From Candidatus Hodarchaeaceae archaeon (GTDB taxonomy: Archaea; Hadarchaeota; Hadarchaeia; Hadarchaeales; Hadarchaeaceae): 45,750 nt of DNA. Under the pieces are notes generated by a model. That model was not told the origin of the DNA. It saw only the letters and a program-made list of their open reading frames with translations, and did not search any database. Positions 1 through 9,072 of the stretch are shown piece by piece. Positions within the stretch are counted from its first letter, which is position 1, and each line of letters begins with the position of its first letter. A program made the position numbers and the translations under genes. The DNA lies in assembly GCA_030018135.1 (NCBI GenBank), contig JASEGJ010000008.1, forward strand, positions 1 to 45,750, in the 5' to 3' direction.

Positions 1-869
1 CGCCATTGCTCGATATGAAACTCCAAGTCCATGTTTTGCCCAAATGATCCTTCCACTCGAAATCCCTTGAAATAAATGTTTCTTCTTCAGCACTCTCACC
101 CCATCAGAGGTTTTCCCCATAATCTGGCCAGCAATTTCAAACTCGGTTGTGGCACCAGAATAGTTGCCCGCCTCAGCGTATTCGCAACCTTTTATGAAGT
201 GCGTAAGGGCTTCTTTCATAGTCTTTGCCATCGAGTAAAATTTGATTGCAGAAGAGGAAATTTCAGCCGTTTTGCAGTTTCTAAGATCACCGAACTTGGT
301 TTTTGCTTCACTTATTTTTGAAGAGGAATCCTCAAAAGCAATTTTAGCAGCATGCCCGATTTAAGCTCTGGAGGCAAAGCTTCCAAATCTATTGAATCGA
401 GAGCTTCTTTAGCAGAAAGAAAATACGGTTGGGCTCGATCAATGTCTTCTTTAGCATCTAAAAATTTAGTCACAGCTCCATCCCAATCTTCATAATCAAA
501 ACGTAATATCGCCTGTTCGTAATCTTCTCCAGCATCGGATAAGCAGATCGCACATTTAACAAGATTTGAACAAGCATCACACAGGCATAAAGCAGCTTGC
601 TTCACCGCTGGTTCAACATCTGCTGTCTCTAAATATTTTCTAGCTTCCCCCACATCTGATTGGGCACCCGCAAGTTTTACCCTCGCACCTACATAGTCAT
701 TTTCATCCCAGCATTTCATTGCTTGGGAGTATTTTTCAAGCGAGGAATTAAAGAGAGTATCTGCTTGACTAAAAGCGGTTTGGGTCTCTTTCTCCGTGTA
801 GTATACAAAAACGGATACAATAAAGATAAAAACAACGGTGGTAATTATCCCAAAATAAATCTTTTTCAT
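1..869 (-). pseudogene. Membrane-anchored helical (TPR-like) hypothetical protein, frameshifted near 360 and continuing off the window edge
   Basis: ORF 312..869 has an N-terminal TM segment and amphipathic helical repeats. A second stop-free minus frame starts at 360 (HAAKIAFEDSSSKISEAK...) and runs to base 1 with similar composition. The region is AT-richer than the core genes. Confidence 0.55.
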
Positions 870-1063
870 AGAAAATCCTCAACTGGTTTGTAGCTTTCTT
901 TTCACCCCTCAAATACTGCGCCAGCTTTACCGGATCCTCCCTGATTGCAGTTCTTATCGTTGAATACTTGCCGAACTTCTTGATCCTCTGGTGTTCAATT
1001 CGTTTGTCGAATAGCTCATTAATGCCTTTATCATCTTGTAGCTTCTTTCCGCTTTAGATAACT
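866..1063 (-). pseudogene. cas1: Decayed 3' fragment of a Cas1-family (Cas1-solo/casposase-like) gene
   Basis: Manual translation across about 3 single-base frameshifts gives YLKRKEAT-MIKA-INELFDKRIEHQRIKKFGKYSTIRTAIREDPVKLAQYLRGE-KESYKPVEDFL*, which resembles the Cas1 C-terminal 'LA.YLRGE..Y.P' helix. Its stop overlaps the next ATG (ATGA, 866-869). Confidence 0.6.
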
Positions 1064-1130
1064 TCATGCATCGAGAGGGTGCCCCAGCTATAAATCAGAA
1101 GCGAGCACCTGTAAAAATGGGCGATGAAAA

Positions 1131-2924
1131 ATGGTCGGAGGAAAGGTTCGCCAGCCGATAATCTCGGTGCTCGGGCATGTGGACCACGGAAAGACCATGC
1201 TCCTCGACACCATCAGGGGAACCGCGGTTGCCGCGAGGGAGCCGGGCCAGATAACCCAGTGGATAGGGGCATCCGAGGTCCCGATCTCTGCGATCCAGAA
1301 GGTCTGCGGCGAGCTCGTTCGATCGCTCGGAATCAAGCTTGCGATTCCAGGCCTGCTCTTCATCGACACCCCTGGCCACGAGGCCTTCACAAACCTTCGC
1401 CGTCGCGGGGGGGCGCTCGCGGATCTGGCAGCCCTAGTCGTCGACGTGAACGAGGGCTTCATGCCCCAGACGCTCGAGTCGCTGACCATCTTGAAGTCCT
1501 ATAGGACGCCCTTCATGCTCGTCGCGAACAAGATCGATCTCTTGCCCGGCTGGCGCCCCACGCCCAATGCATGCTTCCTCGACTCGTTCGCAAAGCAGCG
1601 CGCGGAGGTGCGGCACGCACTCGACGACAGGGTTTATGGGCTGGTCGGTAAACTTCATGAACTCGGCTTCGAGGCGGAGCGCTTCGACCGCGTGAGCGAC
1701 TTTCGAAGGCAGGTATGCATCGTGCCGACGAGCGCCAAGACGGGCGAGGGCATCCCGGAGGTGCTGGCGGTGCTCGCGGGCGTTGCCCAGCGATTTTTGG
1801 AGAGGGAGCTGACCATCGAGGTAAGCGGGCCCGCGCGCGGAACGGTGCTCGAGGTCAAGGAAGAGGTGGGCTTGGGCACGACCATCGATGTCATAATGTA
1901 TGACGGCACCCTAGCCAAGGGCGATACATTTGTGGCTGGCGGGCTCGATAAGGTCATCACCTCGAAGGTGCGGGGATTGCTCCAGCCGAAGCCGCTCGAT
2001 GAAATTAGGGATCCACAGGACAGGTTCAGGCCGGTCGAGCGAGTGTTCGCCGCCGCGGGGGTCAGGGTAATCGCACCGAACCTGGATGGCGTCGTCGCCG
2101 GGGCACCACTTTGGGCGATAAGGGATTGGTCGGAGATCGAGAAATTCAGGCAGGAGCTGCAGCAGGAGATGGAGCGAGTAAGAATTCGCGCCGACATCAA
2201 CGGCGTGGTGCTGAAAGCCGATGCGCTGGGCTCGCTCGAGGCACTTGAAGGGCAGCTCAGGGAACGCGGGGTGGCGATACGTAAGGCGGACATAGGTGAC
2301 GTTTCAAGGCGAGATGTAATCGAAGCCTCAACCGTCGCAAAAAGCGACCCGTTGCTCGCGGCAGTGTTGGCATTCAACGTAAAGGTCCTGCCGGACGCTC
2401 AACAAGAAGCCGAGCTTCAAGGGGTGCCGATCATCCAGGATAACATCATATACAAACTCATGGAGACCTATGAAAATTGGAGCAAGCAAAAGCGAGAGGA
2501 AGTAAGGGCAAAGCGGCTCGAGGGGTTCATCAGGCCGGGCAAGTTCGCGCTTAAGATTGGATTCGTGTTCAGGCGCAGCCACCCAGCAATAGTCGGCGTC
2601 GATGTCCTCGGGGGCATCATAAAGCCGAAGTATCCGATCATGCGCAAGGACGGCCGCCGCGTGGGCATCATCCACGAACTCCAGCGCGAGAAGAAGACCG
2701 TGCCAGAAGCTAAGCTCGGCGATGAGCTGGCGGTTTCGATCGATGGGGCAATCGTGGATCGCCACATCAGGGAGGGCGATGTTTTATATGTGGATATCCC
2801 CAGAGACCATGTGATGGCCCTGAAAACCGAGCTCAGGGACCTGCTGTCCGGAGATGAGCTCGCGGTGATGGACGAGATAATAGCGATCAAGCAGAAGGAG
2901 GACCCAACGTACGGGGTGATGTGA
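1131..2924 (+). CDS. infB: Translation initiation factor aIF5B/IF-2
   Basis: [25 protein letters not shown] and NKID GTPase motifs; KADALGSLEAL; 597 aa, the archaeal size. Confidence 0.98.
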   Translation: MVGGKVRQPIISVLGHVDHGKTMLLDTIRGTAVAAREPGQITQWIGASEVPISAIQKVCGELVRSLGIKLAIPGLLFIDTPGHEAFTNLRRRGGALADLAALVVDVNEGFMPQTLESLTILKSYRTPFMLVANKIDLLPGWRPTPNACFLDSFAKQRAEVRHALDDRVYGLVGKLHELGFEAERFDRVSDFRRQVCIVPTSAKTGEGIPEVLAVLAGVAQRFLERELTIEVSGPARGTVLEVKEEVGLGTTIDVIMYDGTLAKGDTFVAGGLDKVITSKVRGLLQPKPLDEIRDPQDRFRPVERVFAAAGVRVIAPNLDGVVAGAPLWAIRDWSEIEKFRQELQQEMERVRIRADINGVVLKADALGSLEALEGQLRERGVAIRKADIGDVSRRDVIEASTVAKSDPLLAAVLAFNVKVLPDAQQEAELQGVPIIQDNIIYKLMETYENWSKQKREEVRAKRLEGFIRPGKFALKIGFVFRRSHPAIVGVDVLGGIIKPKYPIMRKDGRRVGIIHELQREKKTVPEAKLGDELAVSIDGAIVDRHIREGDVLYVDIPRDHVMALKTELRDLLSGDELAVMDEIIAIKQKEDPTYGVM

Positions 2925-3316
2925 TGGTATTCAAAGTCGTGGTCGCCGACCCTACCACGGGCAAGAGTTATCAGCTCGAGGCCAGGGAGCCGGCCGCGAG
3001 AAGGTTGGTCGGCCTACGCATCGGGGACAAGTTCGATGGCGAGATAGTCGGCTTGCCCGGCTATGAACTTCAGATCACCGGCGGCACCGATGTTGACGGC
3101 TTTCCCATGCGCGCGGACATCGCTGGACCCGGTCGAGCCAGCGTGCTGCTCGCAGGTGGCTCAGGTTTTAAACCTCGAAGGCGTGGCGAGCGGAGGCGCA
3201 AGCGAGTGCGCGGTCGAGTGATCTCCGACACCATCGTACAGATTAACGCGAAAATCGTGAAGAGGGGCGAAAAGCCAATCGAGGAACTCGTCCCAACGAG
3301 GGAGAAGAAAGCATAG
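2921..3316 (+). CDS. rps6e: 30S ribosomal protein S6e
   Basis: FKVVVADP...ITGGTDVDGFPMR...GERRRKRVRG...QINAKI; lies between infB and eIF2-gamma. Confidence 0.97.
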   Translation: MMVFKVVVADPTTGKSYQLEAREPAARRLVGLRIGDKFDGEIVGLPGYELQITGGTDVDGFPMRADIAGPGRASVLLAGGSGFKPRRRGERRRKRVRGRVISDTIVQINAKIVKRGEKPIEELVPTREKKA

Positions 3317-3400
3317 CTTTCTGCAAGGACTTTTGACCTCGTGGACCCTTTATCACGTTACACCGAGTCCTCTAGACGATTTTATAAAATAGGAGGACTG

Positions 3401-4648
3401 TTGATAAAAGTAAGGGTGCCCGTTTTGCCGCAAGCTGTAGTAAACATAGGTTTGGTCGGTCATGTGGACCATGGCAAGACGACGCTTACGGATGCGCTAT
3501 CCGGCATTTGGACGGACACGCATAGCGAGGAGCTCCGCCGGGGCATCTCGATCCGCCTGGGCTACGCGGATACATCTTTTAGGAGGTGTCCGGTTTGCGA
3601 GCCTCCGGCCAGCTATACCACGAAGGAAGTTTGTCCGAGGTGCGGCTCCAAGACGGATTTCCTGCGTCGCGTTTCGTTCGTGGACGCCCCCGGGCACGAG
3701 ACCCTGATGGCCACCATGCTCTCCGGCGCGGCGATCATGGATGGCGCGGTGCTCGTCATAGCCGCAAACGAACCTTGCCCGCAACCCCAGACGAAGGAAC
3801 ACCTCATGGCAATAGAGATCATCGGCGTGCGCAATATAGTGGCGGCGCAGAATAAGATCGAACTCGTATCGCGCGAGAAAGCAATCGAAAACCAAGGGCA
3901 AATTAGGGAATTCTTAAAAAGCACCTGCGCACGAGATGCCCCCATAATCCCGATATCCGCGATTCACAGGGCAAATATCGATTTGCTGATTCAGGCGATC
4001 GAGGAGCGCATACCCACGCCCGAACATGATCTATCGAAGCCAGCGCTGATGTACGTTGCGCGATCGTTCGATGTCAACCGCCCCGGCACCAGACCCGAAA
4101 ATCTGGTGGGTGGTGTTATAGGGGGCTCGCTCCTCCAGGGCAGACTCCGCGTTGGTGATGAGATAGAGGTCCGCCCGGGGATACAGGTCACCAAAGAGGG
4201 TAAAACGAGGTGGCAACCGCTGAGATCTGAAATAGCGAGCTTGCAGGCTGGGGGCGAATTCCTGGACGAGGCAGTCCCAGGCGGCTTGGTGGGTATCGGG
4301 ACGAAGCTCGACCCATCCCTCACCAAGGCTGATTACTTGGCGGGAGCGGTTGTGGGTGAACCAGACACCCTGCCTCCCGTGCTGGAAACGCTTCAGCTCG
4401 AGGTTAAGTTGATGGAGCGCATCGTCGGCATGGCGGAGGAGCTTGAGGTAAAGCCGCTCACCACCGGGGAACCACTCATGTTGAATGTCGGCACTGCCAC
4501 CACGGTCGGCACGATCACGAGCGCGCGCGACGGCAGGGCCGATGTTAAGCTTAAACTGCCCGTCTGTGCCAGAGAGGGGGCGAGGGCCGCGATAAGCAGG
4601 CGTGTCGCTGGCAGATGGCGCCTCATAGGCTACGGAATAATCGGTTAA
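3401..4648 (+). CDS. eif2g: Translation initiation factor 2 subunit gamma
   Basis: [23 protein letters not shown], a Zn knuckle, [17 protein letters not shown] and WRLIGYG. Start placed at the in-frame TTG 3401 after GGAGG (ORF track gives 3341). Confidence 0.97.
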
Positions 4649-8715: not shown

Positions 8716-9072
8716 ATGAAAGTTGAAATAACAGAAAAGGTCGAGAATCCGCTGCTCCAGCGAACGGAAATCAAATTTAAGGTGAATCACGCAGGCGAAC
8801 CCACGCCCAAGCGCTCAGATGTCCGCGCCCAGCTGGCCGCCCATCTCAGCGTACCGGAGGAGCTCGTAGTGATCGAAAAATTGGCGGGTATGTATGGCCG
8901 CCGGGTGGCATCGGGCATCGCGCGCGCCTACAGCTCCCGCGAGCGACTTGAGAAGATCGAGCCAGAGTACCTGATCAAGCGCGGCTTGCCAGCTGAAACA
9001 AAGGCTGAGGCCAAGCCCGAAGAGAAACCTAAGGAAGTAGGTAAGAAGGGTGGCCGGGGTCAAGACAACTAA
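8716..9072 (+). CDS. rps24e: 30S ribosomal protein S24e
   Basis: MKVEI...[10 protein letters not shown]...[12 protein letters not shown] 8716 follows GAGGGGG; the 8602 extension runs through the repeats and is rejected. Confidence 0.95.

Follow-up and report, generated by a model that had tools for sequence, protein, structure and literature searches.

The question raised by this locus is what occupies the AT-rich kilobase ahead of the aIF5B (infB) gene at the left end of the window, as we call the whole stretch of 45,750 nt analysed here. The GC content in 200-nt bins is 0.38-0.48 across positions 1-1200 and 0.49-0.65, mostly about 0.6, past 1200, in line with the earlier note, which had described bases 1-1090 as AT-richer. 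The same note had read on the minus strand a Cas1-like peptide running across single-base slips, in a stretch over which no ORF is called, with a stop overlapping the ATG of the next gene. All of these readings were borne out. The segment 866-1072 (minus strand) is the C-terminus of a Cas1-family integrase (casposase) gene, here a pseudogene comprising ~70 last codons and the stop, or about the last fifth of the gene, as determined by translation, protein matches, tblastn, blastn and a DNA alignment (A2). Three-frame translation of the minus strand gives four frame segments, YLKRKE (1060-1043), SYKMIKA (1043-1023), INELFDKRIEHQRIKKFGKYSTIRTAIREDPVKLAQYLRGE (1023-901) and KESYKPVEDFL followed by the stop (901-866), and neighbouring segments overlap by one base at every frame switch. 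Alignment A2, with four homologous cas1 DNAs, shows one base missing from the window at each switch (about 1043, 1023 and 901), and in it the homology can be traced by eye as far as about 1066-1072. The stop codon, TGA at 868-866, shares bases with the start codon of the following minus-strand ORF (ATG, 869-867), and the ORF list contains no start-to-stop ORF across 866-1072.

For the protein search, a 52-aa single-frame piece (window 898-1053, minus strand) was compared with 5.8 billion sequences. It matched 26 proteins among 35 candidates, with 65-91% identity and E values from 8.8e-17 to 7.1e-9, and the Pfam Cas1 family (PF01867) is present in 22 of the 26. The Cas1 assignment proposed in the earlier note is therefore upheld by the protein search, while direct profile scans with Pfam and NCBIfam yielded no Cas1 match for the piece, which is too short for profiles; their top match, DUF6164 (E 0.015), falls short of its cut-off. 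Residues 274-319 of the Cas1 relative P0003 align to window 1029-892 with 85% identity (tblastn), and the cas1 genes of two Hadesarchaea loci, L002 and L003, align to 1054-880 (blastn), so that the tail corresponds to Cas1 residues of about 260-321. Mismatches to the L002 gene at codon positions 1, 2 and 3 number 2, 1 and 19; the tail therefore gathered its differences while the gene was functional and was broken late. For neutral decay, three indels set against only three first- and second-position substitutions make an odd ratio.

The tail is followed on the same strand by a cargo gene. Its N-terminal part, ~171 codons long, spans 357-869 (ORF list and alignment to a homologue on G037:C16), and its C-terminal part, located by the same alignment, lies in another frame at 1-356 and runs without a stop up to the contig end. 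The called ORF of 185 aa (312-869) has its final ~14 codons out of frame. The homologue on G037:C16 is an intact gene of 305 aa with 82% nucleotide identity to the window cargo, and their global DNA alignment places an out-of-frame deletion of ~142 nt at about 357, where environmental contigs from public runs X1 and X5 have some 140 additional nt. A reading in which the 185-aa ORF is an undamaged cargo gene maintained by selection was set aside because of this deletion. The product is predicted to be a helical protein with a membrane anchor and belongs to no known family: the cargo has no match in Pfam or NCBIfam, and the best score in the protein atlas was 0.87, with every match below 0.9 and no family assigned.

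Casposons are self-synthesizing DNA transposons that encode a protein-primed family B polymerase (PolB) and insert by means of a Cas1-family integrase, the casposase. The casposon reading of the earlier note is supported by the nearest full-length relatives of the tail, P0003 and the Cas1 of L003. Both L002 and L003, which come from Hadesarchaea MAGs, encode a protein-primed PolB (PF03175, E 1.1e-18 and 5.2e-25, respectively) and are bounded by terminal inverted repeats (TIRs) of 151 nt (94% complementary) and 210 nt (99%). L003 is flanked at both ends by the 14-nt direct repeat GTTAAGGTTTATAT and L002 by a 13-nt repeat, and the target site duplication (TSD) of the Hadesarchaea relatives accordingly has 13-14 nt and the form GTTAA..TTTAAC. 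At real termini, ...GAAAATGGGAAAATAGTAAAAAAA leads into GTTAARRTTTAAC. Neither a tandem array nor a Cas family among the neighbours scanned was found in the two loci; Cas1 unlinked to cas2 or an array, PolB, TIRs and TSD thus occur together in the close relatives of the tail. Full-length relatives have 324-354 aa, and their Cas1 profile match reaches position 326 of 327. Among 48 metagenome loci of the same clade, PolB is present in 10 of the 13 full-length cas1 loci that have 1.9 kb or more of DNA upstream. Database matches point to further members of the lineage in Bathyarchaeota and MSBL1; no relative of P0003 was detected in a viral contig collection. No second copy of the tail was found within full casposons. 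As a control probe we tried the gene upstream of cas1 in L003, which turned out not to be conserved even between the two reference casposons. The window copy itself retains ~70 cas1 codons and one terminus, placed by inference on contig C21, and is a relic, not an element able to move.

On the aIF5B side, cas1 homology stops at or before 1072 and a host motif, CAGCTATAAATC, begins at 1085, which places the junction between relic and host DNA within 1073-1084. The motif (1085-1096, plus strand) is TATA-box-like, stands 35 nt ahead of the aIF5B ATG at 1131, and is identical over its 12 nt in the sister genome G003 at the same place upstream of aIF5B (L021, 8271-8282); from its position and from what is known of archaeal TATA boxes, we take it to be a promoter element of aIF5B. 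The aIF5B gene (1131-2924, plus strand, 597 aa) is intact and was found in 19 of the 20 relatives searched, with 56-84% identity (20 of 21 genomes when the source genome is included). Neither a left TIR nor a copy of the target GTTAARNTTTAAC was found at the window junction, and one target-like match, at 4544, has a mismatch and is at chance level. What lies at 1073-1084 is a breakpoint left by an internal deletion within cas1, and not an element end. GGGGCACCC (1077-1085), which the earlier note had offered as a weak candidate terminus, is not one: it falls in the junction zone just before the TATA box, and in G003 its position is held by GC-rich host spacer. A discrete left boundary shared by the tails was suggested by the tail of the window and that on contig C33, both of which start near the MFLK codons, yet starts vary. 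We rejected a common boundary because, over 20 loci, the points at which tail DNA starts are spread continuously from cas1 nt 643 to 905 (blastn). Furthermore, no tRNA gene was found at the loci scanned (C21, C28, the C40 island and window 1-4421).

The other side of the insertion was traced by synteny. In six of six sister genomes examined, in a comparison that covered genera other than that of the source genome, ndk lies directly upstream of aIF5B in the order gltX-L7Ae-...-ndk. The comparison of infB upstream regions, proposed earlier, thus shows that this order is broken in the source genome, where the gltX-L7Ae-...-ndk genes are located on contig C21, with ndk at 495-106. Positions 1-70 of C21 are a casposon terminus, after which comes the target GTTAAAGTTTAAC, next to ndk. 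This target occurs perfectly in only two places of the 1.1-Mb genome, and both adjoin termini. The window starts at a contig end, and no contig-end overlap with the start of its contig, C44, was found; by synteny, C21 and C44 would be neighbours, with neither a read nor a contig spanning the gap between them. The contig break beside the window is caused by the repeated casposon end. Since ndk stands beside a casposon terminus on C21 and synteny is broken, the window holds the inner end of a right arm. The proposal that the element continues left of the window thus held for the outer terminus and target on C21, and the zone at 1073-1084 dropped out as an element end.

The history that we consider probable is that window 1-1072 is the inner part of a casposon right arm, left by insertion into the ndk-aIF5B spacer, later deletion and decay. 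A casposon would have entered the 13-14-nt near-palindromic target AGTTAAACTTTAAC in this spacer of a Hadesarchaeon, with its cas1 oriented towards ndk. In a deletion, which we place after the insertion, the left inverted repeat would have been lost along with polB, the central genes, about 255 cas1 codons, the second copy of the target and part of the host spacer. On the host side it would have stopped some 12 nt before the TATA box of aIF5B, an essential gene, selection on which presumably set this limit. Decay would account for the three -1 frameshifts in the cas1 tail and the out-of-frame deletion of ~142 nt in the cargo, and the remaining relic has no evident function.

The source genome holds two further cas1 tails, and no intact casposon copy, polB or whole cas1 was found in it. 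Around one of them, on C40, the right-arm layout is complete on a single contig, with the tail, two cargo genes, the right TIR and the target, and the other, on C33, is without cargo. Tails lie 2.1-2.7 kb ahead of a terminus on the same strand in G010:C11 and G038:C20. In G005:C11 there are three tail-plus-cargo units, with a methyltransferase, a PD-(D/E)XK-like nuclease and a transglutaminase-like fragment. Some genomes that lack any Cas1 match contain solo termini. At locus L079, a full element with TIRs of at least 104 nt (100%) and a right-arm relic share one target. Across the class and the metagenomes, 5'-truncated cas1 tails are common, with hardly any polB fragments or 3'-truncated copies, so the family is strongly biased towards survival of the integrase tail with cargo. 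Random deletion does not account for tails outlasting the other parts of casposons.

This bias bears on how the window copy came to be truncated. It may have arrived in that state, without a large deletion on site, either as a right-end-only product of partial replication or gap repair or as an internally deleted non-autonomous casposon moved in trans. In 65 genomes of the class, 23 of the 24 partial Cas1 rows of the tail's clade begin at residue 215 or later, next to three full-length genes, and a PolB probe of class genomes gave two full genes and one fragment. The metagenomes contain 14 loci (13 distinct) with cas1 pieces that start at residues 72-187 and reach the 3' end, all with a stop at most 38 codons upstream, and no 3'-truncated piece was found in them away from a contig edge. 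Start points become denser towards the 3' end of cas1 and form a continuum, as in 5'-truncated retroelements; a polB fragment joined to cas1 residue 148 in L094 is an internal-deletion derivative, and a family 1 casposase integrates TIR-less ends in vitro (PMC8464041). However, the truncated end has neither a target copy nor a left TIR in the window and in G037:C16, and casposase integration should leave such a copy. With two TIRs that hardly differ, there is no obvious basis for an end-specific mechanism, and inverted repeats framing truncated metagenome copies were sought in L104, L090, L108 and L094 with zero pairs in each. The three tails of the source genome are merely 75-80% alike in DNA and therefore not descended from one truncated mobile copy. 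Weighing these points, we regard arrival in truncated form as rather unlikely. Far less probable still is that the tail was retained as useful, supplying the cargo with a promoter or ribosome-binding site or encoding a small Cas1 C-terminal protein that hinders incoming casposases. A Shine-Dalgarno-like motif, GAGGA (876-880, minus strand), putatively functional and read from the sequence, stands 6 nt ahead of the cargo ATG within the final cas1 codons; the overlap of cas1 stop and cargo start is present in the window, C40 and G037:C16; the C40 tail is an intact ORF of 111 aa; and at ~8 loci a GC-rich host flank meets the tail, with an ORF in AT-rich DNA 6-140 nt on. Against this, the window tail is frameshifted three times and its cargo is broken as well, the C33 tail has no cargo, and stops are present in many of the tails of other genomes. 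From tail to tail, third codon positions change freely, therefore coding constraint is the only constraint seen in tail DNA.

Two further explanations concern the nature of the tail and of the junction, and we give both hardly any credence. The tail could derive not from a transposon but from a CRISPR-Cas adaptation module, as a cas1 that decayed beside a lost array. Every Cas1 model scores the full-length relatives highly (208 bits for P0003 on TIGR00287), the top solved relative is the CRISPR Cas1 4n06 (94.8 bits, with 72.9 bits for the Methanosarcina mazei casposase 6opm), and the CRISPR-linked Cas1 of the class is 33-35% identical to P0003. This identity is low, though, beside that of the 80-91% identical relatives, which sit in elements with PolB, TIRs and TSD, and the true modules of the class run cas2-csa1-cas1-cas4. 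None of the three tails has a cas gene as a neighbour in the source genome, which has no Cas2 above the cut-off (best 21.7 bits against 23.8, on another contig) and, by TRF, no array-like repeat except a 66-nt repeat of 2.6 copies on C41. Likewise, the junction at about 1073-1084 might be an assembly chimera, in which a repeat was joined to the aIF5B contig. The contig indeed breaks 1 kb away, within the element, and the tail is multi-copy in related communities, with a depth of about 150-160 against 20-80 in the flanks and loose ends on either side of it in run X3. The public runs X1, X3, X4 and X5 represent relatives at 85-95% likeness and not the source sample, and the best of 16 runs holds 0.12 of the sampled words. 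Arguing for a genuine junction, it lies 1.07 kb inside a 45.7-kb contig, the ndk contig ends in the matching casposon terminus, and the layout of host DNA, tail and cargo recurs in C40 and in other genomes. Insertion followed by deletion on site thus remains our preferred account.

The AT-rich kilobase ahead of aIF5B is, in consequence, transposon debris, and neither a CRISPR relic nor a hidden gene. It is an ordinary genomic fossil, although from a casposon lineage that seems to be undescribed, and it documents in Hadesarchaea a lineage with a defined target and long repeats. In the literature searched, casposons are mentioned together with Hadesarchaea or Hadarchaeota in two papers, and judged by title and abstract neither deals with such elements. 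CRISPR adaptation is held to descend from casposons, and an integrase resembling CRISPR Cas1, together with regular decay products, makes the family worth specialist attention. A bolder proposal, which we rate as improbable, is that casposon right arms (cas1 tail, cargo and right repeat) survive or arise far more often than the other parts, pile up at the regenerated target of 13-14 nt as arrays of tail-plus-cargo units and deliver genes one-way to small sediment archaea. In addition, the integrase scores closer to CRISPR Cas1 than to a family 2 casposase, so its lineage may sit near the transition from casposase to Cas1, or represent a PolB transposon with a cas1 acquired from CRISPR. If the polar reading were true, truncation could stem from one-ended integration or abortive gap repair, and such a polar, lineage-wide process would be previously undescribed.

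Among known systems, family 1 casposons, whose PolB belongs to the His1/His2-like branch, have a compact gene set with a protein-primed PolB, as have the relatives described here. The family 1 casposase (NitAR1-C1 of Ca. Nitrosopumilus koreensis; AFS80663.1, 347 aa) is without a C-terminal HTH, and the same holds for the relatives here with their 324-354 aa. The likeness is one of features. Family 1 integration is sequence-specific with a 13-nt duplication (PMC8464041 and PMC9939771), compared with 13-14 nt in the Hadesarchaea lineage. Differences include the host, Nitrosopumilus/Thaumarchaeota in family 1 and Hadesarchaea MAGs here; the target, which is ATTGATAAAGAGT in family 1 and an intergenic near-palindrome, GTTAA(N2-3)TTTAAC, here; and the TIRs, which are 150-340 nt long in the Hadesarchaea lineage. 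The window copy, unlike family 1 casposons, is a broken tail only.

Family 2 casposons (Aciduliprofundum boonei, M. mazei) likewise have a Cas1 integrase, PolB, TIRs and a TSD of ~14 nt. PMC4779613 describes target reuse with tandem insertions, inactivated copies and remnants that outnumber full copies, and elements split across contig ends; target reuse is also seen in the lineage studied here, at L079. The remnants described there are solo TIRs and not cas1 tails, and the word 'truncated' does not appear in that text. Family 2 casposases have a C-terminal HTH and about 405 aa and are accompanied by an HNH gene, whereas neither HTH nor HNH is seen in our lineage, and P0003 scores the M. mazei enzyme under the CRISPR Cas1, as given above. 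The CRISPR Cas1 proteins of the same class (G008 and G013) belong to the same fold family, their identity to P0003 being calculated over the full length. In the source genome the neighbours of the window tail are the cargo and aIF5B; the CRISPR Cas1 of the class sits among cas2, csa1 and cas4, whereas the relatives of the tail sit with PolB between TIRs.

On the minus strand of the window, the 3' tail of a cas1 (casposase) gene (866-1072) is read in the three-frame translation as four peptides in successive frames: YLKRKE (1060-1043), SYKMIKA (1043-1023), INELFDKRIEHQRIKKFGKYSTIRTAIREDPVKLAQYLRGE (1023-901), and KESYKPVEDFL with a stop (901-866). This is the frame-slip reading proposed in the earlier note, and its other observations on this stretch hold as well. 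No start-bearing ORF spans the tail, its TGA stop (868-866) shares bases with the ATG (869-867) of the ORF that follows, and the left end is AT-rich (GC 0.38-0.48 up to base 1200, mostly ~0.6 further on). Alignment of the DNA with four homologous cas1 genes shows that each frame switch corresponds to one missing base. The 52-aa single-frame piece matched 26 proteins among 35 candidates with 65-91% identity (E 8.8e-17 to 7.1e-9), and the Pfam Cas1 domain carried by 22 of them bears out the Cas1 origin suggested for the stitched peptide. Direct Pfam and NCBIfam scans of the same piece gave no Cas1 match, which we attribute to its length. Between the tail and the cas1 of the reference element L002, 2, 1, and 19 sites differ at codon positions 1, 2, and 3, respectively, indicating that in this lineage the gene was still working until not long before the three frameshifts arose. 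It is unlikely that the tail is still functional in its frameshifted state; the feature belongs to a known kind of element and, as a fossil, is an ordinary one.

The nearest full-length relatives are ~325-354 aa long and cover the Cas1 equivalog model from end to end (208 bits). Surroundings were retrieved for two of them, L002 and L003, both in Hadesarchaea MAGs. A protein-primed family B polymerase (PF03175; E 1.1e-18 and 5.2e-25, respectively) is located 1.5-3 kb from cas1, long TIRs (151 nt with 94% and 210 nt with 99% complementarity) lie ~9.6-9.9 kb apart, and direct repeats of the target, GTTAAAATTTAAC in L002 and GTTAAGGTTTATAT in L003, are found outside the TIRs. No repeat array or cas neighbour is present in either locus. 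These two elements are casposons. The lineage of the tail has the defining casposon features tested, and its element works like one. When metagenome contigs were searched using 18 aligned family members, 48 loci emerged; 13 of them hold a full-length cas1 with 1.9 kb or more of DNA upstream, and in 10 of these 13 the same polymerase is present. The Cas1 protein family is large, with 159 database clusters at E <=1e-10 and identities as low as 35%; a few clusters bear the label Bathyarchaeota or MSBL1. By contrast, those Cas1 genes of the class sharing only 33-35% identity with P0003, the full-length relative used as a probe, reside in cas2-csa1-cas1-cas4 modules. The tail is unlikely to be a CRISPR remnant: neither Cas2 above the cut-off nor a CRISPR-like array (TRF) was detected in this genome.

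The left arm of L002 (3973-5383) encodes a TIR-domain protein (PF13676, E 1.1e-10; ThsB-like) and a weak GIY-YIG match, possibly defence-type cargo. The two reference casposons do not share a conserved version of the gene upstream of L003 cas1. This gene matches, at 42-44% identity, the first ~138 residues of two ORFs (280 and 312 aa) at C29:2758-3192 and G001:C16:7200-7634.

In all six sister genomes examined, gltX, L7Ae, small ribosomal protein genes, and ndk precede aIF5B on the same strand. This is the comparison of infB upstream regions called for in the earlier note. In the genome of the window, another contig, C21, carries gltX, L7Ae, and ndk, and ndk ends ~35 nt before AGTTAAACTTTAAC. 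The first 70 nt of C21 represent a casposon terminus, 96% identical to that on contig C40, and the perfect target motif occurs in only two copies in the genome, each touching a terminus. The cas1 in the window is directed away from aIF5B, which makes the C21 terminus the right end. The genome assembly (1.1 Mb, 45 contigs) holds no DNA left of base 1, as the window is the entire contig C44. The window holds the inner part of the right arm, separated from the C21 terminus by an unassembled gap. The assembly was probably broken there by the TIR, which has three or more copies (C40, C28, and C21); no contig end overlapping the start of C44 was found. The suggestion that the element continues to the left agrees with the right terminus and target on C21, near ndk. 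The proposed search for PolB, TIRs, and a duplication led to the terminus and target on C21; there is no polB in the genome and no target copy at the junction.

On the host side, cas1 homology ends at ~1072 or before, and the 12-mer CAGCTATAAATC (1085-1096) is identical to one preceding aIF5B in the sister genome G003, which places the breakpoint within 1073-1084. It falls within cas1 codon ~255 on one side and ~12 nt ahead of the aIF5B TATA-like box on the other. An assembly chimera at this point is unlikely. Neither a target copy nor a TIR was found at 1073-1084, and GGGGCACCC (1077-1085), named in the earlier note as a weak candidate terminus, falls in this junction zone and does not resemble the real termini. 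Where this genome has the casposon, the ndk-aIF5B spacer of G003 (L021 8115-8250) holds three copies of a palindromic motif, GTCCTATTT(T/G)AGGACA, which may be a regulator site.

The genome has two further tails. An intact 111-aa tail ORF starting from Cas1 residue 215 (C40:15831-16166) is followed by a 381-aa gene, a matrixin-like gene, the right TIR, and the target, while a frameshifted tail without cargo lies between two host genes (C33:74867-75046). The DNA likeness among the three tails is 75-80%, so each derives from a separate insertion; whole cas1, like polB, is absent from the genome. The exact TIR 11-mer TCAGATGGCAT occurs four times, three of them inside TIRs. The fourth, at C40:15809 (L004 2810), is in right-end orientation 10 nt before the C40 tail, which fits a tandem element pair with a deletion across the joint. 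A third terminus (C28:4045-4605), with 92% identity to the C40 terminus across 342 nt, is next to TTTAAAATTTAA; contig C28 ends ~560 nt inside the casposon, and similarity to stretches of C10 and C11 is seen in its final 190 nt. Contig C31 (1021 bp), whose ends overlap the ends of more than 10 other contigs by 51-55 nt, is an assembly-breaking repeat. The sole long-period repeat listed by TRF is a 66-nt tandem repeat in 2.6 copies (C41:32482-32651).

The cargo gene behind the window tail has a single homologue among 65 class genomes, a 305-aa ORF on G037:C16 with 82% nucleotide identity. Its comparison revealed ~142 nt missing from the window and a shifted frame, so the called 185-aa ORF was rejected as an intact gene; it and the partial ORF at 1-231 are halves of a single broken gene. 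At the deletion point, ~140 extra nt are also present in contigs of two unrelated environmental runs. The protein has an N-terminal hydrophobic helix and belongs to no known family (Pfam, NCBIfam, protein atlas). For function in 1-1072, the most that can be pointed to is a GAGGA motif ahead of the cargo ATG. In the G037 locus (L073, G037:C16:6699-10223), the intact gene follows a 55-nt cas1 tail with an ATGA overlap; GC-rich host DNA lies directly upstream of this tail, and no recognisable terminus was detected downstream of the cargo.

Truncation of cas1 is polar. Probing 65 class genomes with P0003 gave 47 rows, 20 of which (23-39% identity) were left out as other Cas1 lineages, the two checked being CRISPR-linked. 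The remainder are three full-length genes (67-100% identity) and 24 partial rows (47-89%) in 12 genomes; all partial rows but one (residues 165-225) start at residue 215 or later. A 650-aa polymerase probe detected two full genes and one fragment in the 65 genomes, and the terminal repeat occurs in 21 of them, several without a Cas1 match. The metagenome search patterns sit mid-Cas1 and so favour neither half. Pieces running from residues 72-187 through to 310-329 were found at 16 metagenome loci; in 14 (13 distinct sequences) a stop lies no more than 38 codons upstream and no N-terminal piece was found, and the other two reach the contig edge. Three mid pieces occur (L117, L119, L120), and away from contig edges the scan showed no piece retaining the N-terminus without the C-terminus. 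In DNA, tail start points form a continuum from cas1 nt 643 to 905, so the tails have no fixed boundary.

Some loci combine several pieces. In G005 (L046, G005:C11:977-4156, minus), three tails in a row (161, 72, and 61 nt) each directly precede a different gene: a SAM-methyltransferase-like ORF (191 aa), a PD-(D/E)XK-like ORF, and a C-terminal fragment homologous to the 381-aa C40 cargo, with no repeat between the units. A 188 kb metagenome contig (L079; 8939-9037, 10628-10783) bears a full casposon with 100% complementary TIRs (1-104 and 8772-8875); the target at its end, GTTAAATTTAAC, is common to an oppositely oriented terminus, and ~1.6 kb beyond it a tail (residues 271-322) points back at the target, so that a full element and a right-arm relic stand end to end. 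At metagenome locus L094 (753-1429), a polB fragment (residues 238-265, minus) is ~80 nt from a cas1 piece that begins with residue 148; parts of both arms are kept in this internal-deletion derivative.

In the history we favour, a full casposon would have inserted first and then been deleted in place, the essential aIF5B promoter setting the host-side limit, and the remaining right-arm DNA would have decayed afterwards. Its main rival is that copies are made truncated, whether by one-ended integration, by abortive gap repair, or as internal-deletion derivatives. The polarity of truncation favours such an origin; the lack of a target copy or left TIR at the truncated ends argues against it. 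Following deletion in place, polar survival may reflect selection against the replication module together with transient selection for right-arm cargo; in the window itself this cargo is dead.

A literature search, judged by its listing, returned no published description of casposons in Hadesarchaea or Hadarchaeota. For Methanosarcina casposons, tandem use of one target and solo-TIR remnants are on record, with no mention of polar survival of integrase tails in that account (PMC4779613). In structure matching, P0003 scored 94.8 bits with a CRISPR Cas1 versus 72.9 bits with the M. mazei casposase, which leaves room for a position near CRISPR Cas1. Compared by features, the lineage differs from family 1 casposons in host, target sequence, and repeat length. 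It resembles them in an integrase without a C-terminal HTH and in a 13-14-nt duplication (PMC8464041, PMC9939771).
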